The notes beneath the pieces are model-generated. The model ran no database searches, was not told the DNA's origin, and worked only from the letters and a program-made list of their open reading frames with translations. Below are positions 38,365-62,965 of a DNA stretch of 64,000 nucleotides, in pieces (position 1 is the first letter of the stretch; each line of letters opens with the position of its first letter). A program made the translations under genes and the position numbers. Location: NCBI GenBank assembly GCA_036639875.1, contig JAVWHX010000001.1, positions 87,155 through 151,154 of the forward strand, in the 5' to 3' direction. Origin of the DNA: Coprobacillus sp. GTDB taxonomy: Bacteria; Bacillota_I; Bacilli_A; Erysipelotrichales; Coprobacillaceae.

Positions 38365-41300
38365 TTAATTCTGTATCATCTTTCTTTTCTTATATAACAC
38401 AACTAATAATGCACTTATTGAAATAAATACTGTACCTATAACCACCCAATCTAATGGGAATCCATTATTTATTTTATTGACTTGTGGTTCATTCTTTAAC
38501 TGTTTTATATCCAAACCATTCTTCTCTAATTCTTTTATCTTTTCATTTTCACTGATTATTTCTTCTTCAGCTTCTAGAATTGATTGTTTTTGATACGTTT
38601 CGAATTTTCCTTCCTTTGCATTATATTTTGTTACATAAGCTTGTCTTTCTTGACTATTCTTTGATTTCTGTTTCTCTACTTTTTCAATAATTTCTTCTTT
38701 TTCTTCACTCGTTAACACTGTCTTCTCAGTATCACTATTCTTATTTGAAACGATTATCATTTCAGCTTCTTCTAATAGTGTTAACCCTTCTTCATCTAAC
38801 TGTATAAGTTCGTTTTCAAAGGTTTCTACATCTCCTTCTTTACTTTCAATGTTCTCAACTGGTGCATCAAACAATGAGAAAAAGCTAGTTTTCATAAAGT
38901 CAAAGAATCCTATATCTTTTGATTGACTTTCTACATCAATTGTTTTTCCTGAAAGATAATCAAATCCAACCAATGTTCCATCTTTATATCTGACAAACAT
39001 TATTGTTGTATCATTTTCCATAGTTCCACTGATTTCAACAATATCTTCATTCCTGAATCCTTCTGGAGTCTTAATCTCTCCTATTACATTCAACAATTTT
39101 CCATTTTCTTGTAAGATACACTGTATTTGTTTTCCATTGTAAACATCAACAATAACTTGTATCCCTCTTTTTTCCAAGTGTCCATCTATGATATGAAGTT
39201 TACCTCGTTTAACAAGTAACATATCATTCACTTCTTTATTGTTTGTTGTTGAATAGGTTGAATAGTTCTTAATCTGATATCCTTGATTCTCTCCGCTATA
39301 TATTTCCTTTGTCTCTAAGAGTTCTCCTAAGATAGCTGCTTTTCTCTTTTTACTGTCTTTTAAACTCACTATCTCCTGTTCCTTACTCAAGACTTCATTA
39401 TGATATAAATGGATATAGTCTCCTTGCCACTTCATATCATTATCTTTAACTCCATCATCTACAAGATAATAATAGCGATTCTTATATGTAGATACACTTT
39501 GTATAACATCTTCTGCCTTTACAAGATAATCATATGATTCTTTTCCATATGAAACTTTTATTTCTATATCTGTTTGATAATCATATCCTATTGTCAGAGT
39601 TCTCTCTTTGACTGTATATTCCTTTTCAGTACTTCCATAAGATAACTTCACTTGGATACCTTTATCTTGATACGCTGATAGAGAATCATTAAATTCTATG
39701 TTAATTCTATCTGTACCTGATGAATAAACATTTAATTTTGGTAATTTCTTTTCTATTGTTGCCATTCTTGCCTTACTGCTTAATGTTCCTAAAGATGGTG
39801 TTCTAGGAATATAATCTAATCTTGCTTCTCCTTCAAAGAGTCCATCTAATACCGAGTAGGCTGTACTATAATCTCCTGGCACTGCCAATCCTTCTTGATA
39901 TTTAGGTGTCGTATTCCCAGATACAACAGATGGTAAATAACCATGAGTGTCAAATGTAAATAATGGTGATATTTTTTTATTGGTTGCATCAATTGCATAG
40001 TAATAGCCTCTAGATGGAATTGTGATTTGATTTCCCTTTCCAGCTACAATGGAAGTACTATTATCTTTCCCTAAATTATAGTTTCTATCTTTATACCATG
40101 TATAATCACCATCTTCAAGGATAATTGTTTGAGGAGATACATCATTTCCTTCATAATAAGTCTGTCCTTCTACAACTTTTGCAGTAGTGAAGTAATTACT
40201 TAAATATGCCAAAACCGATGACCATATAGTATCTTCATTCACTTTTAACTTCAATGATATCCTTTGGAATTGACACGTTACTGACGAGATTGTAACATCC
40301 CCCTCTTTTGATTTAATAACCAAATCGTACATTTCTGATGGTTTATTAGCTGAGTAAATCTTATATGTCCCATCTGGTAAATCTGCATGAACTCTAAAAA
40401 CATGTTTTGTATAATCTATTGGTGTAAAACTAAAGTCATTCTTCCCGTTAACTGCACTAAAATCTCTACCTAATTCTAGAGTCGCATACACAGACATTTG
40501 ATTTGTTGCCCAAGCCAATCCTGGACGCTTTGAATTCTTAGTAGTTCCAGTCACTGGATCATAGACATTTGTCAACAAGTCATAATCACCAATATCCGCT
40601 TCTGTAATGACTTCAATATGTTCTCTAGTTGGATCTTGCCATATGCCTGCATCCTTTGCTTTGATACCATTTAATGTAGAATTCTCTTCAATCTTTATTC
40701 CTAATATATTCTTATCTTCTACAATGTCTCGATAATTATATGTAACGAAATTACTTTTCTCTTTATCAACACTGCTAACTCTTGAATTATGAATCAGATA
40801 ACCTCTCAATCTTTTAATAGGCGTAACTCCCTCAACTTCTTGAACATAACCAAATAAACCACCTGCATAAGATGAAGCATGAACATCAATATTAGATACA
40901 TATCCACCATATGATGAAAAATTCGGATTATCTAAAATAACACAACCAGCAATACCACCTGCATAATTATTCTTAGCAGTTATCTTTGTATCTCTTACAA
41001 TTGCATAACGAGTAGTAATATTTGTATCCATTCCATAACTACCGCCAAAGAACCCTCCTGCATAGTTATTTGCCTCAATTTCACACCTTGCAACTACATT
41101 ATGCCAATCTGTTGACTTTACAGTTTTATGACCTGAAAAACCAATAATTCCTCCTGCATAATCTTTAGTTGTTTTAACCTTTGTATCATATACCGCACAC
41201 CAATAAGGAGGTGGTGAATATACTTTGTTTTCAATGTCGGCTTCTCCATCTGTTATAACATTACCTGACCCTACAATACCACCTGCATACTTTTCTGCTT

Positions 41301-44300
41301 GAACATCGGCATTAACCACTGTAACTGTATAACAACCGCCTCTACCTACTACACCTCCAGCTGCATATTTTGCACGCACATTAGCAAATCGAACTTCACT
41401 ATTCACCACCGAATTATTACATTCGCCAGCGACTCCTCCTGCATTAAATCTTTCTGCATTAACAGTCACATTTTCAATTATAGAATTGGAGACATTACCT
41501 TTGCCTAATATTCCTCCTATTCCCGAACCACCTTTAAGATTTATGTTTTTTGCATTAATATCATAAACAATTCCTGTCCCAGTCCCAACTGCACCTCCAA
41601 TATAATAACTAGAGATAGTTGAATTAATAGTTATATCTTGAAGAGAGACTCCATCAAGTTCAGAATTATTTATGTTTGCATAAGTTACCCCAAAAATTCC
41701 TCCATGATTTGTTCCATTTCCTTCAATTAACACATTCTTTGCGCTATAATTTGTTGAAATTTTTGTCGTATTATAACCGCCTATACCCCCTATGTTTGAT
41801 TTTCCTTTAAGCGAAACATTTTCAACTGATATGTCATTGTTGGAAGTAGCTTTTAAATAAGTTACATTTTGATAACCAACTATTCCTCCTACCGAAGTAC
41901 TTTCGCTCGCATTAACAATTATATTCTTACCTGTTATATTTTGCATACCTCCACTGCAACTTCCTACTAACCCACCAACTGATCCATTTGTACCAGTAAT
42001 TACCGTCTTATAAGTTCCTTCTATCAGAATTTCGGAAACTTCCACATTTTTGATATTACCTACATTATTTCCAATCATCCCTATTATCGAACCATTAAAA
42101 AGGTTTGCATTTAACTTACTATTTTTAAATACACAATTCTCTAAATCTGCTGAGTTTTGTTTTATGATTCCCATTGCTCCTTTATTTGGCGCTGATGTTT
42201 CATAATTTATGTTGATATTATCAAATGTTATATCTGATATTCCACTCATACTATTTTTAATTAAATTATATCCTTGTGAATCATTAAATGTTAAGTTTTT
42301 AATAATACTTGTTGCTTTATCTTGACCTATAAATCTATTTACAGCTACATCTAATACTGGGTTTTTTATGCCCTCAAAGTCTATTATCCCAATTATTTTA
42401 AAGTTCTCTGATGATTCTTTATGATTCGCAACTATATTTTGCCATTGTTGGCTATTACTTATCTCCCAATAAACTGGTCCTTGATAATCCACCATGCTTG
42501 ATAATGTCATTATTGCTGGGTTCTTTTTGTTTTTTAATATAACATTTAATTTATATAAGTCTAAAGCCTTTAACTTCTTTGAAGTAATTGTACATACACT
42601 GACATCATTCTTTGTTGTTTTATCAATTGATAATTCTGTCATATCATCAATTGTTATGTTTTGAATATCAAATCCTTCATGATGAACTTCAACTTCAACT
42701 TCATATGTCTCTCCCATTTGTTTGGAATTGATAACTGACATTTTCACATTATCTGAGCTTAAGTATTTTGACTGTTGATCTGGTAATAGTTCTCCATTTG
42801 TATTCTTAACTTTAGGAAGCGCTCCATTTTCTACTTCTGAATAATCAAAGGCATTTCCCATCTTAATAGTATATAGATATGTATCTTTATTAGATAACTG
42901 TTCTCTTGTTAGAAGTCCTGTCGCATCATCAACACCTATATCCATATTGTTAAAATATTGTCCACTATAGGCATAATTATCTTTATCTATTGGATAGCTA
43001 TTCTTTTTTGCAGCTATACGATGCGCATAGTTATAATCCGCTTTACTTAACATCATACTTCCTACACTTAAACAATTACGCGATGATGTATTAACAGAAA
43101 TACCACCATTATATTCATTACTTGATTCGATGATTACATCTGAATAACATCTTTGGATTTTTCCCTCTTCATTAGCTACTCTAACACCAACTAATCCTCC
43201 ATTATTCATTAAGCTTTTAATTTTTCCAGATGCATAACTATCTAATAATACACCTGAGCTGCCAAGTTTTCCTACTATCCCAGCAGCAGATGGTGAAATT
43301 TCTGTTCTTGAAGTGTCTAATTCAATTTCAAAATCACTCACATAACAGTGATTAAGTTTACCATTTAAAGTACTAGTCATACCAGAAATGGTATTTGATG
43401 TTGCCGTGTTTGATGGTACACTCTTTAATTTCATATCTTTGATAGAACAGTTTTTAATTTCAGACATCATTCCCGCTGTATTCACCAATCCCGAGATTAT
43501 TCCGTCTGTTCCTTCAAGAGATATATCTCTGATATGTATATTACTAATTTCTCCTATTGTTGTATTTATCAAAGCAGTTGAAAGAGTTGTATCTCTCATC
43601 CACTCAAATCCTTGAATTCTTACATTTTTAAATGTTCCATTCATTGCATCTATTAATGCACTAACTTTAGAAAAATCAGAAGGTGGGTTGATATTTGAGA
43701 TTGTATGCATTCCTATGAGTTTACCATCTGCATCATATTTTCCTCCGTCAAACTTCCCAGTAAACTTAGTCAAATAAATGCTGTTATAATTACTTACCGT
43801 TGAAAAGTCTAAATCTGTTTTTAATCGATAATTTTGACTTTGATTACTTGCCATAATCATCCAATCATTAAAACTATTAATCGGTTTATAGAACTCTGCT
43901 TTTATACTGCTGTCTGTCACAGTTGCACTGTTCTCTGTATGTGTAGAACGATAATCAAACTTTGATATCTTATATTCTGATACATAGACTTTTGGATTAC
44001 TGACTTTTACTTTGACTTCATAAAAATGATTAACAACCTGTTGTTCAAAGATAATACAATCCACATTATCTACTGTAATATTTGATATGATATCATTGTT
44101 TGGATTGGTCATCTTGATTGTTACATCTGCATAGTCTTCTGTTTGTTTTGTAACAACACTATCGACCACTTTTGGTGCAATGCCATCTTCAACTTCAGGA
44201 AGTTTTATATAAGGTTGATACTTATCCATACAGCTGTCCATTTTAAGTTGAGGATAATATCCTAATTCAACTAATGAATCTACTTCAAAAGTATTTTCTT

Positions 44301-47300
44301 TATTGATGTTTGTATCATAGAAATCCTTATCCCAAAGTTGTTTCTTTGACGTATACTCAGAACATTTTATCGCATATTGCGGATTTTCTGATACAAGATA
44401 GACATTTTTATTTACTGCTGAGCCATTGCTATGTCGTATTGGATGCAATGATAAATTATATCCGCCATCAATAGGTCTATCATTAACTGTATCCGTTGTA
44501 AACTTATACATATCACCAACAACAAATATATTTTCTATAAGAGGATTTCTATAATCTGCAGTTATTATTCCTGAATAATTCGAATTTGCATAAATATCAG
44601 TAATTGCATAGATATTCTTTATTATTCCAGAAGAGTATTGAGTCACAATTCCTCCATCATTTCTCACATATATATGTCCATTCTTTGTTTTATTATAGAT
44701 ATAACCATTTTCAATGATTCCGAAGTTATTTCTGACAAAAACTGTAGAATTTACATTTGTTCCTACCATTTTAACCCAACTTTCACCATCGAACTCTATG
44801 ATAAAATTATTAATCTTTCCATAATTATCTCTCATAAAAGAGGTTGAACGAAATTGATCTCCTAATGCATTTGGTGCGTATATGATATTCTCCATAATTC
44901 CATAGTTATTTCTTACAACATTATAACCTAAGTCATCCCCAGCAACTCCTACAAACCTTACATTCTTCAATGTTCCAGACTTCCCAACATCAAAATTAGA
45001 ACGCCTTCCTTTCCCTAGAGAAAGTGTATGTCCTTGAAAATCTAATGTACCATTAAATGTAAAATCACTTAAAAATGGCCATTGTGTTTCCACAATATCA
45101 TTAACAACTATATAATTTCCCCATGTATCATTTTTAATATATTGAAAATCACTTATGGACTTTATTACATATGTGAGTTTATCAGATTCTACTTCACATT
45201 CATCTAAAACAATAACTCGTCCATGATATTGAATTGATATTTCAAACTTATAACTTTTTCCATTCTCCAAATAGACTGTTCTTGCTTGACTAACAGGCTT
45301 AATCTTTCCATTTTCATATGTCAGATGATTTTCACTCACCGTACTTATCTTATAGTCATCTTTTCCTATCACATTCGTTTCATACTGTGTAATGTAGTAG
45401 TTCTCTACATTTTGTAGTAATCCTGCATTATCTGTTAACGTTTCTTCTAATGATATGACCTTTTGATTCTTCGCCTCTTGTAAAAGTAACAATTGTTCGT
45501 TTCTGCCTTTTCCAAATGACCATCGCATATAGGCTGCATTTGTTGGAACCACAATAACATTTTCAGTTTGATGTCGACCTCCGATATATTTCTTTTCTTT
45601 ATCATAAAATACAGTTGGACCATTAAGTTTATAATAGATATCTCCTGGTGTTACTTCTATATAATCAGTAGAATTATAGGCAGTGTGATTGGATTGAAAT
45701 CCTGATCCAACATCAAGAAAAGCATCATTTATTATATTAACACCAATGAAAGCATCTTTTGGATTATCTATTTGAATCATGTTGGAGTTATTTAGGTTCT
45801 CAATTCTTCCTTGAACCCTTATATTTTTCCATTGATAGTAATTATTAATGACTGTTCTATCAAAATAAACACCCATTCCATCTGCATATGTCTGATTGTA
45901 AAATCTTTGAACTACTCTATTGTTAGTATCGTAGGCTAGCATTCTTAATAAGCCAGCACCAAAATCTTTTAAATATAATCCTTTTGTTGAATCAACAGGA
46001 AGATAATCAGTAACAAAATATCCTTCCTTATCTATAATATGCCCTTCATCATCTATTCCTTTATTCATCATGACTTTCTCTTTATCTATATTTCCTATAA
46101 CACTTTGATTATCATAAGTAAATTGCATATCATTCAGCTCTATGCTTCCTTCTATACCAAGTGTTGGTCTAAATGTAAATGTCTTAAATGTGAAGTTTCT
46201 TTGTAATGTCCCTGCTGTTTGTCCATCATTATACTGTGCTGCTACAAATCTTATCTCATAGTTATCTTCATCACTTAATGATTCAAATCGCATCTTTTCG
46301 ATTTTATCACCTATTAGATATGTATGTGACTCTATAACTTCTTCTCCTCTTACTAATTGAATTGTATATTTATCATCTAGTAATGTTTTATCAATATCAT
46401 TGACTTGTAAACCATAAAACTCGAAGAACTTCTGACCTTGAAAATAATCTTCATATATAATTTGTGGTTCTCTTTTCTTTGTAATGAAATTATCTTTACT
46501 TATCATTGTTTGTAAATCATAGATATATCCACCTTGATTTGCTTTACTTAAAACTTTCATTATATATTTCGTTGATGGACTTAAAGTTCCTTCTGTCATA
46601 GTAATATGAAGACTTCCACTCTTCTCTGCACTTGTTTCAAAATATGCACCATTGATAAATGCTTGCCATGGTGTCACTCCAGATAATAACAATTCTTTAC
46701 TGACACTTAACAAAATCTCTGGTTTATTTTTTTCTCCTTGTTGGATAATTAATTGTTTCTTTGTATCATCATAAAACTTCTGTATATCTACATTATCAAA
46801 CATCTCTTTTTGAATAGTGATTCCTACTTTATCATTTTTATCTGATGTTAATTCAAATGTTATTTCATTCATCAAATCAGCAAGTGATGTTGATGACTTT
46901 GTATTCATGTTGATATTAATAGTTGCGCTAGTCCCTAATATATTCGTAAATGAATTTGTATAATTTAATGTTCCATTCCCTATTGATGCTGAATAGAACG
47001 CTGAATTACATATTTCTTTTTTCTTATCTCCTGTATTATCTTCTATATTATAATTTGCTATTGCCTTTATATACAGTTTCTGTGAGAATGGCAAATTATA
47101 TATTGATAAATCTATGTCTTTATCTTCTTTACTAATTTGTATTTCTTTCGCTGTTTCTTTTACACCATCTTTTTCATATTGAATATTGAGTGGTTCTCCA
47201 CCCTCATCACATATCTTTACTGTATAATAACTATCTATTATAGCATTATCTATATCACTTAAACTCAACTTAAGTTTAAATGATCCTGCTTTGTTTTCAT

Positions 47301-47640: not shown

Positions 47641-47643
47641 ATC

Positions 47644-49113
47644 TTATATTTTCATCATATTTGATGATAATATATCTTTCATTTCATAATTAACTTTGAT
47701 TGGTTTGACATTATCTTTAATAGCTAATGTCTTAGTTTCTGTTAACTCTAAAAATGTTTCTGCTGTTTTCTTTCCAAATTCATCATAATACTGATAAACT
47801 CCTTCTACATATATAGTTGAATCTGGTGGTAATATAGATATTTCTGCTTGTACACTCTTTAAAAATTGTTTTCTCATTAAGAGTGTTCCTTTTGAATCAT
47901 AGACATTAAAACGTATTCCTCTTATGATCTTATTTGATGGATCATTAATTGTAAGATCAGTATGAATCGTATAAACCCATGTTTTTAACTCATTATTTGT
48001 AACTGTTGGTTTTATATATGTTGTATCTGGTGGAGCTGGATCTTGAGGGTCATCTTCGCCTTCACTATCCCCTTCTCCATCGCCTTCGTTTTCTCCGCCT
48101 TCTCCTACACCTTCTCCTGGCTTATCACTCTCAGATCCCCCAGTATGATCACCTCCAGTGTTACCTTCATCAACTGGTGGTGTTGGTTTCACTTCTGGTT
48201 TCTCTGGTTCAATTGGACTTGGTGTTTGCTCTCCGGCCTCTGGTAAACTCCCCTCATCTCCTATATCATCTTTATCACTATTTTCCCCATTATCACCTTG
48301 CACTTTATCTTCAGATGGTTGTTTCTCTTGTTCATTTTGAATAGGTTCTCTTTTCTCCGCAGGCTTTTTATTCTTTTCTTCTTCTCTTTTTTCTATTTCT
48401 TCTTTAATTTCTTCCTCTTTTTTCTCTATCTCTTTTACTGTTTCTTTTACAATTCCTAATTGCTTTAAGAAATCACTATAATTCATTGTTTTCCCATTAA
48501 GTGTTATCTTTGCGTTTTGAAGTCCTCTAACAGCTAAAAAGTTTAGTTTTCCTTCATTATAACAATATGCATTGATATAAGTTTCTGTGAAATTAGCAAA
48601 TGAATTGACAGGTAAAACATATGTTTCTAACAATGTTTGTATCTTAATATCTTTATGATTCATAAAAATACCATTCTTCAAATAAGCCATTGTTATTTTC
48701 TCATTATCCACTTGTTTTCCACTTGCATCAAAACTATGACCTCCACTTAAATACATCCCTTGTGCACTTGTTAAAACATCAAAATCCTCAGTTATAAGCT
48801 GAGGTTGTGCTTCTATGAATCGTATCCCAGCTCCTTCTTTAATAAACATAGGAAACTCTAAATCTACCTTTTTCTTGTCATTACTTACATAATATGAATC
48901 ACCATTTATATAGATAGGTTCAGTTTCACTGACTTTTACTAGTGAAACAGCATCAGCTTCATAAATATCTTCTTTATTCAATGATTCTTCAATATCATTT
49001 TCTTCTAAAACATATCCATTTTCATCAATATAAGAATGAACAATATATGTATTCATTTGAATAAAAACCAACGCCGATAACATAACAACTGCAAGAATAA
49101 TTAGTTTTTTCAT
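47644..49113 (-). CDS. N-terminally anchored envelope protein (489 codons); probable proximal part of the giant protein
   Basis: Strong RBS GGAGGTG. N-terminus MKKLIILAVVMLSALVFIQ is a signal or anchor. Then a juxtamembrane domain with a KITLNGKTMNYSD motif, an E/K coil, an acidic Pro/Gly spacer and the first FN3-like module. Ends at a TAA that is in frame with the next ORF. Confidence 0.8.
   Translation of the reverse strand: MKKLIILAVVMLSALVFIQMNTYIVHSYIDENGYVLEENDIEESLNKEDIYEADAVSLVKVSETEPIYINGDSYYVSNDKKKVDLEFPMFIKEGAGIRFIEAQPQLITEDFDVLTSAQGMYLSGGHSFDASGKQVDNEKITMAYLKNGIFMNHKDIKIQTLLETYVLPVNSFANFTETYINAYCYNEGKLNFLAVRGLQNAKITLNGKTMNYSDFLKQLGIVKETVKEIEKKEEEIKEEIEKREEEKNKKPAEKREPIQNEQEKQPSEDKVQGDNGENSDKDDIGDEGSLPEAGEQTPSPIEPEKPEVKPTPPVDEGNTGGDHTGGSESDKPGEGVGEGGENEGDGEGDSEGEDDPQDPAPPDTTYIKPTVTNNELKTWVYTIHTDLTINDPSNKIIRGIRFNVYDSKGTLLMRKQFLKSVQAEISILPPDSTIYVEGVYQYYDEFGKKTAETFLELTETKTLAIKDNVKPIKVNYEMKDILSSNMMKI
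48025..48444 (-). repeat. low-complexity coding spacer (E/K-rich, then acidic Pro/Gly-rich)
   Basis: aa 224-363: KEIEKKEEEIKEEIEKREEEKNKK ... PSPIEPEKPEVKPTPPVDEGNTGGDHTGGSESDKPGEGVGEGGENEGDGEGDSEGEDDPQDPAPP. Locally GC-rich, which generates spurious antisense ORFs. Confidence 0.8.
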
Positions 49114-49130
49114 AGTTACACACCTCCTTC

Positions 49131-49823: not shown

Positions 49824-50306
49824 ACTTTCTTACCTCCATTTACCAAAAAATATAATTCATACAAAAATAAATATATGGAATACATTGTTATACATATTCC
49901 TGTTAAAATATAAACAACGAGAAACATCATTGGTGTATGCATGATAATCATATATTGAAATATCATGTTGTTAATGATAAGTGCCACAGCACATAACAAT
50001 ATATTAATTGCTACATAAACAAACATCTTTAAATGTTCTATAAATACCAAACATAAAATCGCCTGACATATATAAAACATGACATGAACAGCATTAAGAG
50101 ATTGGAAACGAAAAACAGAACTGATTATAAAACACATAAAAGAAAAACAGCTTATAAGTTCCAATCTTGCTTTTGTATTTAACATCATCAATAGATGTTT
50201 CCATATATATATTTTTTCATTTTTCTTAGATAAAATGACAATTGTATAAGTACATAATACAAGTAAGATAGAAACAACTATATATTCTTTTAATTGTGCA
50301 ATATTA

Positions 50307-50323
<17 letters not shown>
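49820..50323 (-). CDS. small polytopic membrane protein (4-5 TM), unknown family, last gene of the ATPase cassette
   Basis: 167 aa and very hydrophobic. Overlaps the epsilon-like gene by 17 nt and the next gene by 4 nt. I could not recognise an a-subunit LRLxxN-type motif. Confidence 0.7.
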
Positions 50324-52788
<2,465 letters not shown>

Positions 52789-52792
52789 ATGG

Positions 52793-54109
52793 TTATTCCA
52801 TAAATGCAGAAAAAATCTGTACCATTTCTTCTACATCTTTTGCAGAATATTTATATTGTTTAAATGCTTCAAGAAGTTTTTGACCACGTCTTAATTTTGT
52901 TTGAAGTGCTTCACCCATTTCATCAATATTCGCTAACTCATAAATATCTCGTGTTTCCAAATAACTTAAAAGTTCACGTCTTGTTTTACTTCCTATTTTT
53001 TTAACTTGTTTTTCTTGTACACTTCCTCCTAATCTTGATACACTCAAACCATAATCAATCGCCGGTTTTTGCCCTTTATCAAAATTCTTCTTACTTAATA
53101 CAATTTGTCCATCAGTGATTGAAATAATATTCGTACTTATATACTCTGTTATATCTCCACCTCTTGTTTCCATGATAGGTAAAATCGTAATACTTCCTCC
53201 ACCAACATGTTGACATCCTTTTTCTAAAAGTCTTGAATGTGTATAGAAAATATCACTTGGATATGCATCTCTTCCTGGTTCTTTTCCTGTCAATAATGCT
53301 ATTTCACGATAGACATCTGCATGACGTTTTAAATCATCAATAACTACCAATACATCCTTACCCTGCATCATATAATCTTCTGCTATTGATAAACCAACAT
53401 AAGGTGTCAATGACATAACAGGAGGCTGTTCATCATTGTTCGCACAAAGGATAATTGTATGCTCCATTGCCCCTTGATACATAAGCTGTTGATAAATATC
53501 TTTAACTGACTTCTTTGTTTTCCCAATAGATATGTAAATACACAATACGTCTTTACTTTTTTGATTACAGATTGTATCTAAAGCAATTTGTGTTTTTCCA
53601 GTTTTTTTATCTCCAAGAATAAGTTGTCGTTGCCCTTTTCCAATAGGATACAATAAATCGATACCTGATATTCCTGTATACAACGGTCTATTAACACTGT
53701 TTCTTGACATTATTGATATTGCATTATGTTCAATGGGTTGTGATTTATAGTTTGCAAAATACTGTGCATTCATCTGATCTTTCCCAAACATATCGACAAT
53801 ATGTCCAATTGAATCTTCACTAAAAGTTGCTTCAAATTTTCTCCCCGTTAGTGTTGCTTCATCTCCTACATAGATATCCTTTTCTATCTTCACTAATGAT
53901 ACAATGACACTATCTTCTTTAATAACATTAATATATCCTTTTGCTTTATTCCCTATTTGAACTTCTTCAAAATAACCAGCGTTCATTAAACCTTTGATTT
54001 CTACAACATATTTGTATATGCGTATGATTCTTCCAGTTTCAAAAACATTAGTTGAAGCTTGCATATTATGAATCTTGCTTGTTATTTTTTCTTTCATAAA
54101 ATCATTCAT
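52793..54109 (-). CDS. F1 alpha-like subunit (C-terminally shortened)
   Basis: Walker A QLILGDKKTGKTQIALDTICNQ, VVIDDLKRHADVYREIALL, GREAYP-like GRDAYPSDIFYTHSRLLE, ITDGQIVL, and PAIDYGLSVSRLGG (arginine-finger region). 438 aa, against roughly 500 aa for typical alpha subunits. Confidence 0.9.
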   Translation of the reverse strand: MNDFMKEKITSKIHNMQASTNVFETGRIIRIYKYVVEIKGLMNAGYFEEVQIGNKAKGYINVIKEDSVIVSLVKIEKDIYVGDEATLTGRKFEATFSEDSIGHIVDMFGKDQMNAQYFANYKSQPIEHNAISIMSRNSVNRPLYTGISGIDLLYPIGKGQRQLILGDKKTGKTQIALDTICNQKSKDVLCIYISIGKTKKSVKDIYQQLMYQGAMEHTIILCANNDEQPPVMSLTPYVGLSIAEDYMMQGKDVLVVIDDLKRHADVYREIALLTGKEPGRDAYPSDIFYTHSRLLEKGCQHVGGGSITILPIMETRGGDITEYISTNIISITDGQIVLSKKNFDKGQKPAIDYGLSVSRLGGSVQEKQVKKIGSKTRRELLSYLETRDIYELANIDEMGEALQTKLRRGQKLLEAFKQYKYSAKDVEEMVQIFSAFME

Positions 54110-54121
54110 ACTGCCTCCATT

Positions 54122-54873
54122 CTACAGACTAAAATCATATAATCTGTCTTTATATCTAATTCGATACCCTTCTAATATTTCGCTATCTTTCAATTGTATT
54201 AATTCTTTTGAAGATTCAACAGGATTAACTTCTTTATTTGAATAAATATATATATGTGGATCATTGTTAAAAATATAATCTTTCAAATAACTTATAAACA
54301 AATATAAATCAAATGACTGTTTTTCTTCACAATACTTCTTAAAAATAGTAAATTGGGCTGGAAGAGTTTTTAAAACATCATTTATCACTTCTATTTGTTG
54401 ATTTGAATTAAGGTTCATCAAACCATAATAAACATCTATATCAAATAATGATAAAAGGTCTTCATAATCTTGAACTGAAATAAAGTTCTCTTTTTTTAAT
54501 TCATTAATTGCTTCTAACGATAAATTTAAAGAATTTATTTCAAAATCACATTTCACCATTCTATAATGTTCATCAAAACGATTGTTTTGATAAACGGCCT
54601 GTTTGATAAAACTTTGTTCTCTCTTTTTTTCTTCTTTTTCAATTTTTGTATTTATAATCTCATGAGACGAGATACTGAGTAAGTCGATTTCAGCTTGCTT
54701 TTCTAATAATTCTGCAGTTTTCTTTTCTAATAACTCATCATAAAGATCTGCCATAACAACTCCTACTTTTTTATATATCTGTTGATGAATATCTTGACAT
54801 ATTTTTTTAACAGCAAAAAGTAAGAATGCAGCTAATGATACCATCACTAAAATAACTGCTATAAAACTTATCA

Positions 54874-54874
<1 letters not shown>
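54122..54874 (-). CDS. b-like peripheral-stalk protein with unrelated C-terminal globular domain
   Basis: 250 aa. One N-terminal TM helix (ISFIAVILVMVSLAAFLLFAV), an approx 70-aa charged helical segment (ELLEKKTAELLEKQAEIDLL ... EKEEKKREQ), then an approx 140-aa domain of unknown type. Occupies the position of atpF/atpH. Confidence 0.55.
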
Positions 54875-56707
<1,833 letters not shown>

Positions 56708-59700
56708 CTACTTCTCATAGAGGTATGTCGTCGAATATGAATCAGTTTTTTCAAAAACGTCACCATTTTGTAAATAATAATTAATCATAATACGATAATA
56801 CCCCAAATTTTCTAATGATAGTGGGAGTTCCATTGTGTAATAACCACCGAGTTTTTCACTAAACAAGGTTCCATTTTCATTCATGAGCACTCCTGTAAAA
56901 CTTGACTTACCATCACTGCTAATAACTGTATATTCAACTTTCTTAATAGAATTTAAGTTACTTGCATTCTTATAAGATATAGCTATTTTAGAAGGATCAC
57001 GATTTGGATTTTCAACTGTTACATCTCCATAAGCAATTCCATTTTCACCAGGTGTCATACGAACATCTTCCCAAATCAAATAATCTTCTTTATCTTTTTC
57101 AAATGTTTCATGATCTAACGAAGCTATACTTCCTTTAACATCTGGATTATTATCACAAATACCATCCCTATTCATATCTATACTTGCATAAATAGCAATT
57201 CTATAATTAGTGTTTGGTTTCAAATCTTTTAATGTCATTGTATAATTTTTTCCAGGATCATAAACTTTATATAAGTCTTCAGCTGCAGTTACATCTTTCC
57301 ATGAACTATCTTCTTTTTCAAAATAACGAACATAGTAAACAGAATTATATCCATTCTCAATCAGATAATCACTCATTATAACTTGAGAATTATCCGCTAC
57401 AGAAGTATCCACTTTCATATCAATTGTTTTAGTACCTTGATGGTATTCTGGAACGAGATTTGTAAATGTAATAGGCATTGTAGTAGGGGCTATTTTAAAT
57501 CCTGCTATTGAAGTTCCTAAAATAATACTTTCATCAATTTTTCCATCGGTTACCTGATTTATAGTGGTTTTAATTTGATACTGTGTATCATTTTTCAATT
57601 TATGTTTTGCAACATTTAACATAAAACTAGGATTCATATTTGTTTGATAATTATCTCCTACTTTATAGCCATCATACATTCCGGCATTGATCATATCTTG
57701 ATTACTCATAATCACATTACCAAATTCATCAAGAATGCTATACCTAATAAAGAATCCACTCACTTGGTCAATATTATAAGAAAGAACCAATCGTTGTACA
57801 TCATATGTTTCAATCTTATATTGTAACTTTGAAGAACTGATGTTAACACTACCTTTTGTCTTTACTTCTTTCATAAATGCACCAGATTTTTTTGCATCAA
57901 GTAATAAACTATCTTGTTTATTCACTTTTGCAGTGAAAGTAATACGATATGATGTATCTTTCTTTAAATTGTTTAAGACAATAGAAGATTCCGTTGTCAA
58001 GTTTGTTACGTTAATTGATTGTACGATTTCTTCATTTGTTAGTAGATTTTTAATATGTGCATCAATAAATCGCTTTCCACTACTATCAGCATCAATTTGG
58101 CTAACTCCACTTATATCCACACCATATAAGTTAATAGAAGTCATGTTTTGTCCATAAGAATCATTGACACTGATAGAAGGTACAATTTTCGTAAGTTCAA
58201 AATTTTGTGCTTCATCAGTAACCAACTTTGTTTCATTGATCTTTTTTACAACAAAATAATTAAGTTGTTCTTGTGGAGCTGTCCCAATAATATAAGCCAT
58301 CCCATTTTGATCAGCACGAATTGAATAGTTATTTGTTAGGTTTCTGAATTTAGAAGTAACAACAAAATCTTGTTTTTGTTGAATTGTTTCATAATCTAAT
58401 AAATTATTTAATGTAAATATTGAACCAGATGCCGTTGTTGAAGTCTTAATAATTGCACCACTTTGTTCATCAAAAGCTATATAATTACCGAGAACATAAT
58501 TCCCTGATTTCTTTGTGATATATTGTAAAGCAAACCTATCTCTATTTGTAAGTTCCCAACTCATATTGTTTGAATCATAACAAAGAGATACGTCAGTTCC
58601 AATTGTCTTACCTATAAGCTTATCCAGTTTGGCAGTAGAGATATATCCTATATTTGAAGCATTAAGAGTCATATATGTAGAATAATAACTTGTTGGATTA
58701 TTAACATCATAGAATCTTACATTAACCCCTGCTATTTTCTTATTAAGCAAATCAAGGTTTGATGATCCAACTGGATCTTTTAATTCTATTTTAATTTGAT
58801 TTTTTTCTAAATCAGCAACAACATTGTATTTAAGTTTGCTTATAATATCATTGTTGAAAGTACTAGAGAAATCAATAGGTTGATACATGATATCTAAAAT
58901 ATTTGTTTCATTTTTGTATGATAAATTATATAACTGTCTGCTTATTTGAGGGATGAATTGTCCGTTTTTTAAGCTCGATGATATAATCGAATTAAACGTA
59001 ACACTTCCCCATGTATTTTCATCTACATCGATTGCATCACCATAAGAACCATTTACCAAAAACTTTGTTTCATTTTTCTTTATTGTCTTATCATTATCAC
59101 TATAACGATATTTCAATGTCAAACTTGTTTTATTTGTATTATAATTAGAAACACTTGGATAAATAGTGAATTTTGGTTCAATTTTAGGTGCATCCTTAAT
59201 CCCAGAATTTAAGACATAAGCAGTGCTTAGTTTGTTTGCTAAAGCTGCATACTGAGGATGTTCATAAGGATAAATCTTATCTCCCTCACCAGCCCCAATT
59301 TCACTATAACTTAATGCATACGCAAAGTTATACTTATATCCTCTTGACATACCTGAAGATAATGCATTTGAAGTTGCTTCTGCCTTGCCTGAATATGTAA
59401 CATTGACTCCACCGTATGTTGTATCCACACCTTCTCCAAAAAAGATTGCACATACAGGAACGTTACTGTTTGAAGGAGAAATCGCAATTTCTTTACGCAC
59501 CACCCATTCACCACTATTCTTTAACCCACCATCTAGCCCAAAATCATAAATTGGATTTTGATTAGCAGATAATAAATTGGCAAATTGATTACTTTCAAAT
59601 GCATAATAATACATTTTTCTAGCTAATTTCGCATAATTATCGTAATTTGCCTCTAAGCGATATCCTACAATCGCATTGTCATCTAACTTTGAATCAACTG

Positions 59701-62608
59701 TTTTTCCGTAAATTCCAACATCTTTATTATAGATGATTGTTGATTTAACTTGGTCGTTCATTATTGTGCTATCTGGTAATGCAGGAGCTTGATTCGCTTT
59801 TGTGACAATAACTTCTCTTGTTGTATCAGTCACATTATATTGATTCTTATAACGTGATATATTTGATGGATTGACATAATCATCAGAACCAGTTGTATCA
59901 TATATAGTATTAATTCTTATGGTATATATAGTACCTGTTAAAGAATTAGCTTTAAATCCGAAATCTATTTCAGATACTTCTTTACCATTTATAATAAAAT
60001 CATCAACTAAACTATTCTTCTCAGGGTCTTTATCGACATCAGTAAATATCTTCGAACCCATAAAGACCTTGCCATTTCCACTACCTTTGTAAAGATCTAA
60101 AGTTATCTTGTTTAAAGCGTTCATTTGATAAGTACTCTCTTGTCCTGTCCAACTTCCATCAGTCGCATCCAATTTTAGTATACGAGCAACTGAATTTGAT
60201 GAAGAATTATTGATCTTCCAATCCGCTTTTAATTCAGAAAGACTTGTAGTTGATGTAACAACATTTCCAAGAACATATGGCAAAGATCCATCTCCGTCTT
60301 TAAGATCTACATAACCATTTACTCTAAAACGATAAACACTATCTGCTTTTAATCCTGTTTCAGCAATATTAAGTATAATTTGATTTCCATACGCTGCAAC
60401 GATTGGATTATTTTTTGATGTTATCTCAATTGTCTTAGCATAATCACCTTCACAATCAATATGAATAATAAGTGGATGTTGTGCACTTATATCCATTGTC
60501 GATCCATTTAAATCAATAATGAGATTTCCAGATATATAATCATGTTCTACTTTTGTTGGTTGCATTGATAGTGCAGGAAGATAACTTTCACTCATTTTAA
60601 ATGTTTCAGAAAATTTTGATTTTACTTCAATGATTTTTTCATTGTCATTATAAGTCGTTACCATTCTAAAACGATATGGATGACTAGTGAAAATAACTTT
60701 TTTATCAATTGGTAAAAATACTGCTTGTAAACCACTTCCAGGTTCAATTGCAATTGTTTTAAGAATCTCATCATATTGTGAACTATTTTCATCAGCATCA
60801 TAAACTTCATAATATTGCTCTATAATCGAATTATCATCATCTTTCAATACCCCACTATATAATTCAAAACATTTTAATGGTTTATTTCTAATTGCGTACA
60901 AATCATCGCTTAAAGATGGTTTTTTCTTTAACGTCATTACTTGTAAAACTTGTTGTGTTATATATGTTTTTTCATCATCAAAAGCAACTAATCTCACTAC
61001 AAATTTTTGATTAGATTTAATCTTATCAAACTCATTTCCATCAAAAGTTAAAATTTCATCAGTAAAGTCCTCTCCCATATCAACCGTTTTCTTTATATAA
61101 TTAGATGTAGAGTTGACATCAAAATTTTTAGACTCTTCACTTGTTAATAAATAAATATCTGCTCTTTGTGTTTTTGAATAAGTATTTTTAGTTAATTTCA
61201 CTTTAACTGATGATGTTGTAATACTATCTTTTTCCATAAAGAGTCCTAGTGAATCTGTATAGAAGACTCTTGAAACAAATTCACGTTGGAATTGTTGTTC
61301 ATTCATTTCATAAGTTGCTGTTAAAACAAGTCGATATTCAGTATCTGGTTTTAATGGATTAACAGTTGAATCTGTATGAAAAGATATTGATTCTCCTTGA
61401 ACATTAAAATCACTTTCTCCATTCTCATTAAGACATGAAACCATTGTTCCACTACCAGCTTCATAAACAAGTATTTTTGCACTTTCACTTGTTAACATAA
61501 CATTTTCATCAGTGATTTTTAAACTTCCTTTTAAACTTATTGCATCTACTTCCCATGTTTGAATAGAAAACTGTGGGAGTCCAGTTTTAGAACTTGATTC
61601 CTGTCCCGCATCTGATCCACTTACTCCTGGTTTCCCAGTTGTACCATTTTTACCATTCGTCCCAGAAGTTCCGTTATCTCCATTATTTCCACTCGTTCCA
61701 TTACTTCCTTGTGTACCTGAAGTTCCTAAAGTTCCATGTGTTCCCTTATTCCCGTTATCTCCACTTGTTCCTTCAGTACCTTCAACACCCAATTCTCCTG
61801 CTTCGCCATCTGTTCCATTATTATTTTTAATATCAAATTTGGGAACTTGTTGATTTCTTTTTTCTAATGGTGACAATTCAATATTACTATCAGCATCAAC
61901 AACGAGCTTATTTAAAGTCATTTGATTCTTATTTTTTTCAACAACTTGGTCAAATAATTTAACAGTCGTTCCTAAACCATTTTTAATAGAAGCTGTTGTA
62001 GAAACACTTTGCCATACATTATCTTGTGTAACCAATTGTACAACACCTTCATCAATATAATTAATTTCAATAAAATCTCCTGCTTTACGAATATCGTTTT
62101 TATCAAATACAACTTCAATATTTTCTGAAAACATAACAAATTTAGAATCAGATATTTTTAAAATACCTTCCTCTATTTTGAATGATTCATTTTGGCTTTC
62201 TAGTTGCCAGGTTTTCCCTGATTTTTCTAAAATCATTCCTATAGGAAGCCCATAATGATTAATCGCTCCATTCTTTTCTAAATCCTTAAAATTCATAAGA
62301 ACTCCTCTGGATAATGCGGAAATAGAGCCATCTTCATAATGCAAAAAACTAGATGACTCAATCTCTGCTATTTCACCAGCATTATCCTCAAATGCATATT
62401 TGTTTGGGTATTTTTCTTCATATTGTGTTCCTTGAGTAAACTGGTATCTTGTACTCTGCGATTGTGAATCTGCTTGAATCACATATCCTCCCTTTTCAAA
62501 AGTTTTTAAAGAAGAATTATTAACACTAACTGCTATAAAAAAAACACCTATCATTGAAATAATGACTAATACTATTACCAAAAGAACTCCTTTTTTACTT
62601 TTCACATG
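56708..62608 (-). CDS. giant envelope protein: N-terminal anchor, juxtamembrane domain, collagen-like G-X-Y spacer, long FN3-like array
   Basis: GTG start at 62606-62608, 7 nt after GAGGAGGA (the track start at 62626 is a TTG extension). Hydrophobic segment GVLLVIVLVIISMIGVFFIAV. 23 G-X-Y triplets. Recurrent FN3 hallmarks LKPDTEYRLVLTA, LKADSVYRFRVNG, LKKDTSYRITFTA, LKNDTQYQIKTT, LKPNTNYRIAIYA. Confidence 0.85.
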   Translation of the reverse strand, partial: HVKSKKGVLLVIVLVIISMIGVFFIAVSVNNSSLKTFEKGGYVIQADSQSQSTRYQFTQGTQYEEKYPNKYAFEDNAGEIAEIESSSFLHYEDGSISALSRGVLMNFKDLEKNGAINHYGLPIGMILEKSGKTWQLESQNESFKIEEGILKISDSKFVMFSENIEVVFDKNDIRKAGDFIEINYIDEGVVQLVTQDNVWQSVSTTASIKNGLGTTVKLFDQVVEKNKNQMTLNKLVVDADSNIELSPLEKRNQQVPKFDIKNNNGTDGEAGELGVEGTEGTSGDNGNKGTHGTLGTSGTQGSNGTSGNNGDNGTSGTNGKNGTTGKPGVSGSDAGQESSSKTGLPQFSIQTWEVDAISLKGSLKITDENVMLTSESAKILVYEAGSGTMVSCLNENGESDFNVQGESISFHTDSTVNPLKPDTEYRLVLTATYEMNEQQFQREFVSRVFYTDSLGLFMEKDSITTSSVKVKLTKNTYSKTQRADIYLLTSEESKNFDVNSTSNYIKKTVDMGEDFTDEILTFDGNEFDKIKSNQKFVVRLVAFDDEKTYITQQVLQVMTLKKKPSLSDDLYAIRNKPLKCFELYSGVLKDDDNSIIEQYYEVYDADENSSQYDEILKTIAIEPGSGLQAVFLPIDKKVIFTSHPYRFRMVTTYNDNEKIIEVKSKFSETFKMSESYLPALSMQPTKVEHDYISGNLIIDLNGSTMDISAQHPLIIHIDCEGDYAKTIEITSKNNPIVAAYGNQIILNIAETGLKADSVYRFRVNGYVDLKDGDGSLPYVLGNVVTSTTSLSELKADWKINNSSSNSVARILKLDATDGSWTGQESTYQMNALNKITLDLYKGSGNGKVFMGSKIFTDVDKDPEKNSLVDDFIINGKEVSEIDFGFKANSLTGTIYTIRINTIYDTTGSDDYVNPSNISRYKNQYNVTDTTREVIVTKANQAPALPDSTIMNDQVKSTIIYNKDVGIYGKTVDSKLDDNAIVGYRLEANYDNYAKLARKMYYYAFESNQFANLLSANQNPIYDFGLDGGLKNSGEWVVRKEIAISPSNSNVPVCAIFFGEGVDTTYGGVNVTYSGKAEATSNALSSGMSRGYKYNFAYALSYSEIGAGEGDKIYPYEHPQYAALANKLSTAYVLNSGIKDAPKIEPKFTIYPSVSNYNTNKTSLTLKYRYSDNDKTIKKNETKFLVNGSYGDAIDVDENTWGSVTFNSIISSSLKNGQFIPQISRQLYNLSYKNETNILDIMYQPIDFSSTFNNDIISKLKYNVVADLEKNQIKIELKDPVGSSNLDLLNKKIAGVNVRFYDVNNPTSYYSTYMTLNASNIGYISTAKLDKLIGKTIGTDVSLCYDSNNMSWELTNRDRFALQYITKKSGNYVLGNYIAFDEQSGAIIKTSTTASGSIFTLNNLLDYETIQQKQDFVVTSKFRNLTNNYSIRADQNGMAYIIGTAPQEQLNYFVVKKINETKLVTDEAQNFELTKIVPSISVNDSYGQNMTSINLYGVDISGVSQIDADSSGKRFIDAHIKNLLTNEEIVQSINVTNLTTESSIVLNNLKKDTSYRITFTAKVNKQDSLLLDAKKSGAFMKEVKTKGSVNISSSKLQYKIETYDVQRLVLSYNIDQVSGFFIRYSILDEFGNVIMSNQDMINAGMYDGYKVGDNYQTNMNPSFMLNVAKHKLKNDTQYQIKTTINQVTDGKIDESIILGTSIAGFKIAPTTMPITFTNLVPEYHQGTKTIDMKVDTSVADNSQVIMSDYLIENGYNSVYYVRYFEKEDSSWKDVTAAEDLYKVYDPGKNYTMTLKDLKPNTNYRIAIYASIDMNRDGICDNNPDVKGSIASLDHETFEKDKEDYLIWEDVRMTPGENGIAYGDVTVENPNRDPSKIAISYKNASNLNSIKKVEYTVISSDGKSSFTGVLMNENGTLFSEKLGGYYTMELPLSLENLGYYRIMINYYLQNGDVFEKTDSYSTTYLYEK
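61610..61816 (-). repeat. collagen-like G-X-Y triplet coding repeat (23 uninterrupted units)
   Basis: GTDGEAGELGVEGTEGTSGDNGNKGTHGTLGTSGTQGSNGTSGNNGDNGTSGTNGKNGTTGKPGVSGSD, with Gly at every third residue and Thr/Ser/Asn-rich X/Y positions. Confidence 0.9.
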
Positions 62609-62663
62609 TACATCCTCCTCTATCAAAACATCACTTTAAAACAATAAAACTATCTTTTATTAA

Positions 62664-62861
62664 CTAATCTATTTTTCTAGGAAAATAGCAAACACCTACA
62701 TCTAAAGCTCTTTCTCTGTTTAAGTGAAAGTCAGCATATTTACAATACCAGCATCCTTTCAAATCAGCAGTAATTCCTTCTCTTAGACAAAAAGCTGGAC
62801 AATACTGTTCTGGCCAAACATTCCCTTCCTTATTTGGCTTTTCTAAACTTATCTGATCCAT
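62664..62861 (-). CDS. small cysteine-rich protein, unknown function; probable first cistron of the large operon
   Basis: 65 aa with five Cys (C..FC ... CWYC ... C). AAAGGAA RBS. Lies 55 nt upstream of the giant gene's GTG. No terminator in between. Confidence 0.45.
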   Translation of the reverse strand: MDQISLEKPNKEGNVWPEQYCPAFCLREGITADLKGCWYCKYADFHLNRERALDVGVCYFPRKID

Positions 62862-62910: not shown

Positions 62911-62965
62911 AAAAAAAAGGTCACATGAGTTAAATTTACCTATTTTTGAGCATTATTTATGTGAC
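62911..62965 (-). terminator. possible rho-independent terminator of the histidine kinase gene
   Basis: GTCACAT/ATGTGAC stem with a long loop, followed on the minus strand by a run of 8 T. Confidence 0.4.

Follow-up and report, generated by a model that had tools for sequence, protein, structure and literature searches.

The subject of this analysis is a minus-strand gene cluster at positions 38365-62861 of a 64,000-nucleotide stretch of Coprobacillus sp. DNA (GenBank assembly GCA_036639875.1, contig JAVWHX010000001.1, positions 87,155 to 151,154 of the forward strand; hereafter the window, G+C content ~29%), in which genes for an F1-like ATPase lie among genes for four anchored surface proteins. 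All open reading frames (ORFs) of at least 60 aa that tile the interval are on the minus strand, and read 5' to 3' they comprise a 65-aa Cys-rich ORF, the giant surface protein GA, the smaller surface protein P5, c-like, b-like, alpha-like, gamma-like, beta-like and epsilon-like ATPase subunits, the membrane protein m167, the anchored protein P2, and two consecutive frames of 489 and 3,091 aa. The beta-like gene is 100% identical to that of metagenome-assembled genomes named Coprobacillus sp. (Erysipelotrichaceae). A first-pass annotation of the sequence had counted 13 minus-strand reading frames; the ORF listing bears out the strand, and the number of genes is 12, because sister assemblies carry GAA where the last two frames are divided here, which makes them a single gene for a second giant, GB. 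Eleven of the genes, from GA to GB, constitute a cassette that recurs in other genomes.

Packing within the unit is as tight as first described: gaps of 12, 19 (with the c-like start at position 55119), 12, 4 and 17 nt and overlaps of 1, 4, 4, 17 and 4 nt were reproduced, and only the 55-nt gap given before GA had to be corrected, to 58 nt if translation begins at the GTG at 62605, which is supported by a Shine-Dalgarno (SD) sequence, or to 37 nt if it begins at TTG 62626. The GTG, 8 nt past AGGAGG, is the most likely start of GA, and ATG 55119, with an SD sequence in front, gives the c-like protein the 81 aa that it has in all relatives. SD sequences precede 9 of the 11 conserved genes, in agreement with the statement that most genes have one. 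Translational coupling applies to b and gamma, each of which overlaps or adjoins the stop codon of the gene before it. No convincing internal terminator was found, as had been claimed; a consensus scan returned two weak coding-strand sites (48804-48786 and 55069-55048), both inside coding sequence, with poor T-tails and fold z-scores of -2.4 and -1.6, and a scan for promoter-like sites gave no excess.

The division of GB is peculiar to the assembly examined. What divides it is an in-frame TAA (47646-47644, minus strand), and at this codon five conspecific assemblies (L085-L089; loci are cited by L numbers throughout), 99.9% identical over 20.7 kb, have GAA (Glu490) within a single ORF of 3,582 aa. 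GB is likewise a single ORF in all relatives, and the orthologue from Tannockella aligns straight across the stop site. No SD sequence precedes the downstream TTG at 47640. Together with the GAA in the five nearly identical assemblies, this rules out a programmed stop, whether by readthrough or as a deliberate split. The TAA is either a strain-specific nonsense allele or a base-calling error, and unless it is the latter, this strain probably fails to make or to export the distal 3,091 aa of GB. Giant genes are also frameshifted in several other assemblies (GA or GB in L011, L015, L024, L032 and L068), through assembly error or recurrent inactivation.

The same layout was first met around three beta homologues, one each from Tannockella kyphosi, a Lachnospiraceae contig and a metagenome-assembled genome labelled Thermoguttaceae. 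A scan of one genome per GTDB species, using two motifs specific to the alpha family (DKK[TS]GKTQ and [LM]LEKGCQH), confirmed 334 stretches encoding a relative, and the best 80 of these were analyzed with ORFs annotated by iterated profiles. Conserved synteny, whose absence had been named beforehand as grounds for refuting a functional link, was found: essentially every sufficiently long locus has the order GA-P5-c-b-alpha-gamma-beta-epsilon-m-P2-GB, and both order and spacing are kept across families and across loci with G+C contents of 26-64%. Median junctions across the family range from -20 to +22 nt, a degree of packing that far exceeds chance adjacency. The cassette flanks differ between loci, no gene upstream of GA is conserved, and a tblastn search with P5 found no plasmid copies.

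Carriers are mostly Lachnospiraceae, Erysipelotrichales/Bacilli, Peptococcia and Oscillospiraceae, and Erysipelotrichales are close relatives of Mollicutes. Cultured carriers include Kineothrix alysoides, Hominiventricola filiformis, Tannockella kyphosi, and Lachnospiraceae AM93-12TA and AM48-27BH. Sequence divergence is uneven along the cassette. Identity between orthologues is 71-73% for beta, 66-76% for c, 57-67% for alpha and 43-49% for gamma, while b, m, P2 and the giants are only 17-31% identical and yet collinear over thousands of residues, so that the F1 core is the slow-evolving part and the accessory and surface components are the fast-evolving ones.

A few loci stand apart in their labels or copy number. 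A full cassette encoding high-GC, Ala-rich proteins is present in an isolate labelled as an actinobacterium, Bifidobacterium colobi LC6 (L005; NZ_JAFEJU010000010.1, 60% GC), and copies also occur in bins labelled Thermoguttaceae, Alistipes and Ignavibacteriales (L003, L036, L060). These four represent either cross-phylum transfer or mislabelled contigs; the labels Thermoguttaceae, Ignavibacteriales and Alistipes are probably binning errors. Two whole cassettes (L008 and L013) lie on two contigs of one bin, Lachnospiraceae C.10_6.

An F1-like head on a membrane sector with no evident ion path

The catalytic subunit is encoded by the beta-like gene (50654..52006, minus strand; 450 aa; PF00006, E 1.2e-67). 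Its Walker A motif GGAGVGKT and the catalytic-Glu motif G[VI]GERSREG are unchanged in 74 of 74 family members, in which Walker B (LLFIDNIYR and conservative variants) and IPADD (VPADD in two) are conserved as well. Among the subunits, beta alone clears the canonical atpD cut-off of NCBIfam, and does so marginally (474 vs 463 bits); in a PDB search it lies nearer to the F1 of Bacillus and Fusobacterium (384-399 bits) than to the G1-ATPase of Mycoplasma mobile (336 bits). The alpha-like protein (52793..54109, minus strand; 438 aa; PF00006, E 2e-72) falls below every NCBIfam cut-off, scoring 444 vs 554 and 402 vs 484 bits against the canonical models. A PDB alignment matches its residues 9-435 to residues 12-439 of the 502 residues of Bacillus PS3 alpha, with a C-terminal domain ~60 residues short and the N-terminal helix, which normally holds the peripheral stalk, present. 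All four alpha-like sequences in the alignment carry the Arg-finger motif SVSRLGG without change, and from this and the beta motifs the alpha3beta3 assembly is predicted to be catalytically competent. In eight low-GC Bacilli-type loci (L009, L012, L014, L034, L041, L062, L073, L074), alpha carries a C-terminal extension of ~125-650 aa, without a Pfam match in the four scanned; the Gly-X-Y tracts of GA and P5, described below, tend to be missing from these loci.

A putative central shaft is provided by the gamma-like protein (52003..52788, minus strand; 261 aa), which matches PF00231 with E 1.9e-21 and reaches 51 bits against the TIGR01146 cut-off of 194. The epsilon-like gene (50307..50657, minus strand; 116 aa, and 83-145 aa in relatives) directly follows beta, as atpC does. 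Its product has no Pfam or NCBIfam match, and its alignment with canonical epsilon is collinear but weak (residues 3-79 vs 2-80, E 0.006, hhalign probability 6%). In all, hhalign comparison of the epsilon-like and b-like families with canonical epsilon, delta and b sequences gave weak matches (E 0.006, 0.028 and 0.17), which were taken as leads only.

The c-like protein, a two-helix hairpin of probably 81 aa (54874..55155 as an ORF, minus strand), matches PF00137 with E 1.1e-7 and scores 31 bits against an NCBIfam cut-off of 71; its helix 1 is still Gly-rich, and the R-N-P loop (GRNPETK) that contacts gamma and epsilon has been retained. The ion-binding carboxylate, corresponding to Asp61 of E. 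coli c or Glu56 of PS3 c (position assigned by alignment with reference c sequences), is absent from all 79 c-like subunits compared, that of the window among them, being replaced by T in 55, V in nine, A in nine, and M, N or L in the others, and only one of the 79 has any acidic residue in helix 2. The b-like protein (54122..54874, minus strand; 250 aa), a putative peripheral stalk, is encoded between c and alpha, as atpF/atpH are, and consists of an N-terminal transmembrane (TM) helix and a helical region rich in charged residues, with the motif D-x-x-I-x-E-G...Y-D-Y-S conserved at its C-terminal end. Its Pfam matches are sporadic (Mt_ATP-synt_B in 3 and OSCP in 3 of 48 members), and hhalign gives a weak match to the C-terminus of canonical delta (E 0.028). 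The cassette holds no separate delta gene.

No gene for subunit a is found in the cassette either, in which m167 (49820..50323, minus strand; 167 aa, ~five TM helices from its TM profile, no family assignment) is the sole polytopic protein. Among 42 m-family members searched at E<=1, ATP-synt_A was absent from the 25 most recurrent of the 27 Pfam families matched, and the m-family alignment contains no invariant Arg and indeed no invariant column, all of which suggests that m167 is not a subunit a. With the carboxylate lost from 79 of 79 c subunits and no subunit a, ion pumping and ATP synthesis are effectively excluded, and a mechanical output remains. The suggestion in the first-pass annotation that energy coupling would have to pass through the membrane parts is strengthened by the same two observations.

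These data also bear on the idea that the cassette encodes a working ion-translocating ATPase of the F- or N-type, with an unconventional ion path, that supplies a local ion motive force or ATP to the surface proteins. The classical atp order c-b-alpha-gamma-beta-epsilon and the PF00137 match of the c-like protein speak for it, but we regard it as very improbable given the vacant ion site in every c-like subunit, the single helix-2 acidic residue in the whole set, the missing subunit a, the lack of a conserved Arg in the five-TM protein, and scores far below the N-ATPase cut-offs (alpha 369 vs 750 and beta 416 vs 752).

In six loci, which belong to one sublineage, m and P2 are physically joined as one polypeptide of ~405 aa in which five to six TM helices are followed by the P2 module (L018, L047, L050, L057 and L078, at ~13.3-15.1 kb in each, and L080, at 12.0-13.3 kb), an arrangement that hints at contact between the two proteins where they are separate. 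After the fusion gene, these loci encode a second, longer P2-like protein of 450-570 aa.

The state of the ATPase genes is likewise relevant to the sceptical view that the cluster is a coincidental or regulatory neighborhood, a degenerate and vanishing second atp operon that happens to lie between large adhesin genes, with products that do not cooperate. In its favor, a nonsense codon interrupts one of the giants in this strain, giants are split in several other assemblies, NCBI pipelines name beta an ordinary F0F1 subunit, and beta passes the atpD cut-off. Decay, however, would not be expected to leave beta 71-73% identical between families with every catalytic motif kept, a signature of purifying selection, nor to replace the c carboxylate uniformly instead of at random; the nonsense codon is absent from the five conspecific assemblies, some loci encode m and P2 as a fusion, and order and spacing persist in ~80 loci from several families, at widely differing G+C contents and between unrelated flanks. 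We therefore give this view almost no credence.

Surface proteins with a shared module and matched Gly-X-Y tracts

The extracellular proteins were said to total more than 6,000 aa and to have only very short cytoplasmic tails, and we obtained figures of ~6,295 aa and ~5-14 aa, respectively. GA (56708..62626, minus strand; 1,965 aa from GTG 62605 or 1,972 aa from TTG 62626), which has orthologues at the same position in 64 loci, consists of an N-terminal TM anchor, a juxtamembrane beta module, a Gly-X-Y tract, and a long distal part with one weak FN3-like match. The tract comprises 23 uninterrupted triplets from residue 271 (1,972-aa numbering) and matches Pfam Collagen and the NCBIfam models for Scl/Lcl. 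P5 (55139..56695, minus strand; 518 aa) has a similar plan on a smaller scale, namely a basic cytoplasmic tail, a TM helix, a beta module (~aa 41-207), a Gly-rich tract (~223-318) that also obeys Gly-X-Y, and two FN3-like domains; the tail is conserved and includes an F-N-x-F-G helix motif. In AlphaFold2 models of P5 the TM helix is followed by a module made entirely of beta structure (pLDDT ~90), the Gly-rich tract is disordered, and the FN3-like domains appear as two sandwiches; a fold search with the whole protein is dominated by the C-terminal FN3 pair.

P2 (49131..49823, minus strand; 230 aa), found in 68 loci, is an N-terminal TM anchor followed by an extracellular beta-rich module; a homologue search with P2 alone returned only itself, and a concatenated profile of b, the P5 N-terminus and P2 returned only 23 P5 proteins. 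GB (38365..49113, minus strand; 3,582 aa in the sister strains) begins with a TM/signal segment and a juxtamembrane module, continues with an E/K/P/G-rich linker at the place equivalent to the GA and P5 tracts and with ~2,700 aa of non-repetitive sequence, and ends in a C-terminal TM helix with a KKRKMIQN tail. Alignment with the orthologue from Tannockella is collinear, covering 2,626 aa with 31% identity. Pfam and NCBIfam searches gave no match for P5, P2 or GB, as for m167. BLASTP self-comparison revealed neither internal repeats in GA or GB nor similarity between the two, and the lack of repeats, together with the collinearity across families, rules out ordinary repeat adhesins.

GA, P5 and P2 share a short basic N-terminus and a single TM helix, and the modules of GA and P5 are homologous over the first ~200 extracellular residues (hhalign probability 97.7%, E 1.6e-12). 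P2 and the N-terminus of GB are possibly related to the same module, with hhalign probabilities of 82.5% for GA-P2 and 85.8% for P2-GB. Modelled alone, the module gave a pLDDT of 89.7 and a pTM of 0.85, and its fold had no match in the PDB (best E 0.08, TM-score <=0.22) or in BFVD (best E 0.02). A profile of the module found 332 representatives among 1.84 billion proteins, and in all but three (one of them 1,071 aa) of the 150 listed, the match starts at about residues 35-45. From this rarity and near-fixed position we conclude that the module is specific to the system.

The Gly-X-Y tracts of GA and P5 occur together: both are present in 33 and both absent in 14 of the 47 loci in which the two proteins are complete, and neither is ever found alone. 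Their lengths co-vary as well (31/31, 28/28, 24/26, 33/34 and 62/56, for example; Spearman 0.91, a statistic inflated by kinship among the loci). Such length matching is hard to explain unless the tracts pair, and we infer from it a heterotrimeric collagen-like stalk of GA and P5. Collagen rises 0.29 nm per residue, so 23-33 triplets would extend over 20-28 nm, roughly as far as a Gram-positive wall is thick.

A matched stalk next to a rotary ATPase invites an extracellular rotary device, in which three N-terminal helices of GA and P5 would sit inside the c-ring or be fixed to it and the collagen-like shaft would be spun through the wall by ATP-driven rotation of gamma, epsilon and the ring, with b, the five-TM protein, P2 and GB serving as stator and bushing and with gliding, propulsion or drilling as the result. 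This would account for the retention of gamma, the epsilon-like protein and the c loop in spite of lost ion coupling, for the constant spacing between the membrane and the triple-helix-forming tract of GA, which has a counterpart in P5, for the conserved basic tail of P5 with its F-N-x-F-G motif, and for the fusion of the stator candidates m and P2 in some loci. The argument is purely geometric, however, and 14 of the 47 loci have no Gly-X-Y tracts at all, two loci (L010 and L015) have no c, and the literature searched contains no motility report tied to these genes; we consider such a device quite unlikely.

A proposed envelope machine and its relation to known systems

Taken together, our results suggest, with a probability of about 60%, that the eleven conserved genes from GA to GB encode one envelope machine in which an ATP-hydrolyzing F1-like motor works mechanically on wall-spanning surface proteins. 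A cytoplasmic head of alpha3beta3, gamma and the epsilon-like protein would hydrolyze ATP while seated on a c-like ring unable to bind H+ or Na+, accompanied by the b-like stalk and the five-TM protein and lacking subunit a. Only a mechanical output is open to such a motor, which would turn gamma, epsilon and c, or strain them cyclically, relative to b, m and P2 as stator, and the motion would pass to the single-pass anchors and juxtamembrane beta modules of the four extracellular proteins. GA and P5 would form the length-matched collagen-like stalk, ~20-28 nm across the wall, which carries their large distal parts outside, and GB would be tethered by its C-terminal helix. The expected result would be ATP-driven movement or conformational cycling of the giants, perhaps in adhesion and release, surface translocation or reshaping of the surface layer. 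The data show the conserved genetic linkage, a catalytically competent beta, the lost ion site, the shared module and the co-varying stalks; that force is transmitted, by which route, and to what cellular purpose are the parts of this model that we infer.

Several observations weigh against the proposed machine. If the GB nonsense codon is genuine, the machine may be defective in the very strain examined. The giants bear ordinary N-terminal signal or anchor sequences and could function without a motor. Neither GA nor GB matches any PDB chain, and beyond collagen and FN3 their distal domains match nothing in the searches made. The names b-like and epsilon-like reflect position, size and weak profile matches only. 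Finally, a minimal variant in L010 (9183-21200) and L015 (9546-19016) retains b, alpha, gamma, beta, an epsilon-like protein and m, with one GA-like giant downstream, and has no c, P5 or P2; ring rotation is therefore dispensable in some versions, and the central stalk in these loci apparently couples without a ring, as in the X0 sectors of mycoplasmas.

Giants encoded on both sides of the motor could alternatively be its cargo. As an export or assembly apparatus, the F1-like ATPase would act like FliI-FliJ-FliH, energizing the unfolding, membrane passage or wall threading of both giants, with the carboxylate-less c-ring and the five-TM protein forming or gating a conduit and the motor idle once the giants are in place. 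F1 alpha and beta are homologous to the ATPases of type III secretion systems, FliI/SctN models give 180-216 bits with the cassette alpha and beta, the candidate cargoes are of great size (1,965 and 3,582 aa), and the c-ring has no remaining ion function. On the other hand, GA, P5, P2 and GB all carry ordinary N-terminal hydrophobic segments that suit the Sec pathway, and P5 and P2, too small to need a private exporter, are conserved like the giants. The matched GA/P5 stalks point to a permanent structure. The architecture is also that of a rotary enzyme, an alpha-beta heterohexamer with gamma and a c-ring bearing its contact loop, rather than a homohexameric unfoldase: flagellar and type III export ATPases are FliI/SctN homohexamers that go with FliH and FliJ beside an export gate, in contrast to the distinct alpha and beta and the F-type gamma of the cassette, and the FliI/SctN scores compare with 380-630 bits for the cut-offs of those models. 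We judge the export reading to be rather unlikely.

The proposed envelope machine has a precedent by analogy in the F1-like ATPases of mycoplasmas, of which Types 2 and 3 have been described as mycoplasma-specific (PMC3369863). The Type 3 enzyme is required for the antibody-cleaving surface system MIB-MIP, needs ATP hydrolysis by beta, and co-purifies with MIB and MIP (PMC12994834). Type 3, also termed F1-like X0 (MSC_0618/0619; MMCAP2_0575-0581), resembles the cassette in combining a head derived from F1 alpha, beta, gamma and epsilon with a non-canonical membrane sector without subunit a (PMC12994834; PMC3369863), in sharing one operon with surface-exposed proteins, and in the reuse of a rotary-ATPase head for work outside the membrane. 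It differs in having no c-like or b-like subunit and an alpha without the N-terminal helix, whereas the cassette keeps all three along with the canonical gene order; the Type 3 cluster reads 12-TM protein, 19-kDa protein, gamma, epsilon, 87-kDa membrane protein, alpha, beta (PMC12994834). The cassette lacks the 12-TM and 87-kDa proteins and MIB-MIP, its partners being giant collagen-like and FN3-bearing proteins instead, and its alpha and beta remain below the MSC_0619 and MSC_0618 cut-offs (326 vs 520 and 395 vs 570). The hosts differ too, walled gut Firmicutes in the one case and Mollicutes in the other.

The Type 2 enzyme of M. mobile has been proposed to drive giant surface legs (PMC6935860, PMC11864180). 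In this gliding motor (G1-ATPase, MMOB1660/1670) the giants are Gli123, Gli349 and Gli521, of 123, 349 and 521 kDa, compared with ~220 and ~400 kDa for those of the cassette; Gli349 forms legs of ~50-100 nm and Gli521 is reported as a three-armed 'triskelion' (PMC6935860; PMC11864180), to which the trimer-forming collagen-like tract of GA may be compared. Unlike the cassette, the G1-ATPase is arranged as dimers in cytoplasmic chains, and the gli genes lie at another locus. The G1 beta has 784 residues, with its F1-beta-like match beginning at about residue 300 (9io5_A), and the 450-aa cassette beta has no such extension; cassette alpha and beta score 399 vs 600 and 391 vs 850 against the MMOB1660 and MMOB1670 cut-offs. 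Apart from collagen and FN3, GA and GB had no sequence match in NCBIfam, Pfam or the PDB. The route by which force crosses the membrane in the mycoplasma F1-like ATPases is still open (PMC12994834, PMC6935860).

Canonical F1Fo (atpBEFHAGDC) is matched in the order c, b, alpha, gamma, beta, epsilon, in the R-N-P loop and in the intact catalytic motifs, and the cassette alpha and beta are ~50% identical in the core to the F1 of Bacillus PS3 and Fusobacterium (E 1e-98 to 1e-118). The retained gene order indicates that the cassette ATPase derives directly from an atp operon. The differences are the missing a and separate delta, the c subunit without its carboxylate, an alpha of 438 vs ~502 aa, scores below the NCBIfam cut-offs for alpha, gamma and c, and five additional conserved genes for membrane or extracellular proteins. 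The N-ATPase operon (atpDCQRBEFAG) begins with beta and epsilon and includes AtpQ and AtpR, for which the cassette has no similar genes; the N-ATPase scores given above refer to TIGR03324 (alpha) and TIGR03305 (beta). Judged by score comparison, the cassette ATPase would fall outside the N-ATPase and mycoplasma Type 2/3 families.

On the side of the surface proteins, GA resembles Scl1/Scl2, Lcl and BclA in its Gly-X-Y tract, and a trimeric stalk would hold its distal domain off the cell as in those proteins. Its scores against the Scl/Lcl models are 36-42 vs cut-offs of 325-500, and it differs in the position of the tract near the membrane, in the N-terminal TM anchor and in the matched second tract in P5. 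In the C-terminal 200 residues of GA (...TYLYEK) no LPXTG is visible, a statement made without a motif search, and there is no terminal hydrophobic segment.

The literature searched holds no description of the cluster outside mycoplasmas, although subscription journals were mostly beyond the reach of that search and absence from it is not proof; a lead on motility in Kineothrix produced nothing linked to the cassette. F1-like ATPases acting on surface proteins have been held to be a mycoplasma oddity, and the cassette suggests that the same idea operates in walled bacteria of the gut and rumen, several hundred species in all, in a form closer to the ancestral atp operon, with c-ring, putative b-like stalk and alpha N-terminal helix kept and the ion site erased. 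It would constitute a natural experiment on the role of a c-ring that carries no ions and a tractable system for the coupling of a rotary ATPase to extracellular work, and it points to a possible role for two proteins that are among the largest without annotation in common gut commensals, with a bearing on adhesion, aggregation or movement in the gut. In its boldest form the proposal would have the ion-free c-ring rotor turn or crank the heterotrimeric GA and P5 shaft through the peptidoglycan and so move the giants, as a new class of prokaryotic surface motor and the free-living counterpart, perhaps even the source, of the mycoplasma gliding and MIB-MIP engines; we offer this as speculation and consider it unlikely. 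More immediately, the annotation 'F0F1 ATP synthase subunit beta' in carrier genomes is misleading for metabolic reconstruction.

Boundaries of the unit and neighboring genes

The terminators said to bracket the unit are of unequal quality. The downstream one (38286..38331, minus strand) is a strong intrinsic terminator that closes the unit, with a folding energy of -16 kcal/mol, a z-score of -4.4 and none of 200 shuffles as good, followed by UUUUUAUUAU. The upstream hairpin with its T8 run (62911..62965, minus strand), located 3' of a GHKL histidine-kinase gene, is weak (-7.8 kcal/mol, z -0.7) and was not called by the consensus scan, and it is a probable rather than certain 5' boundary.

The 65-aa Cys-rich ORF (62664..62861, minus strand), with five Cys, a weak SD sequence (AGGA) and no Pfam or NCBIfam match, had been taken as the first gene of the unit. 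No homologue of it is present at any of 84 related loci, which places it outside the conserved cassette and rules it out as a conserved first gene; a leader peptide or regulator confined to the species, or a chance ORF, are the possible readings.

Directly upstream of the operon, at 62968-63873 of the minus strand, is a gene for a 301-aa protein with a GHKL HATPase_c_5 domain, as in sensor kinases of the AgrC/LytS type. It is not kept beside other cassettes, and the window stops before any partner regulator. No integrase or transposase is encoded within the window, the remaining genes of which are ordinary chromosomal genes. Two separate PadR-family pairs lie on the minus strand, one of PadR and a DUF1048 protein (30821-31544) and one of PadR and a HAAS-domain protein directly downstream of the operon (37214-38173); the PadR gene of the latter has a sigma-70-like promoter at 38173-38145 (11/12), beyond the 3' terminator of the unit.

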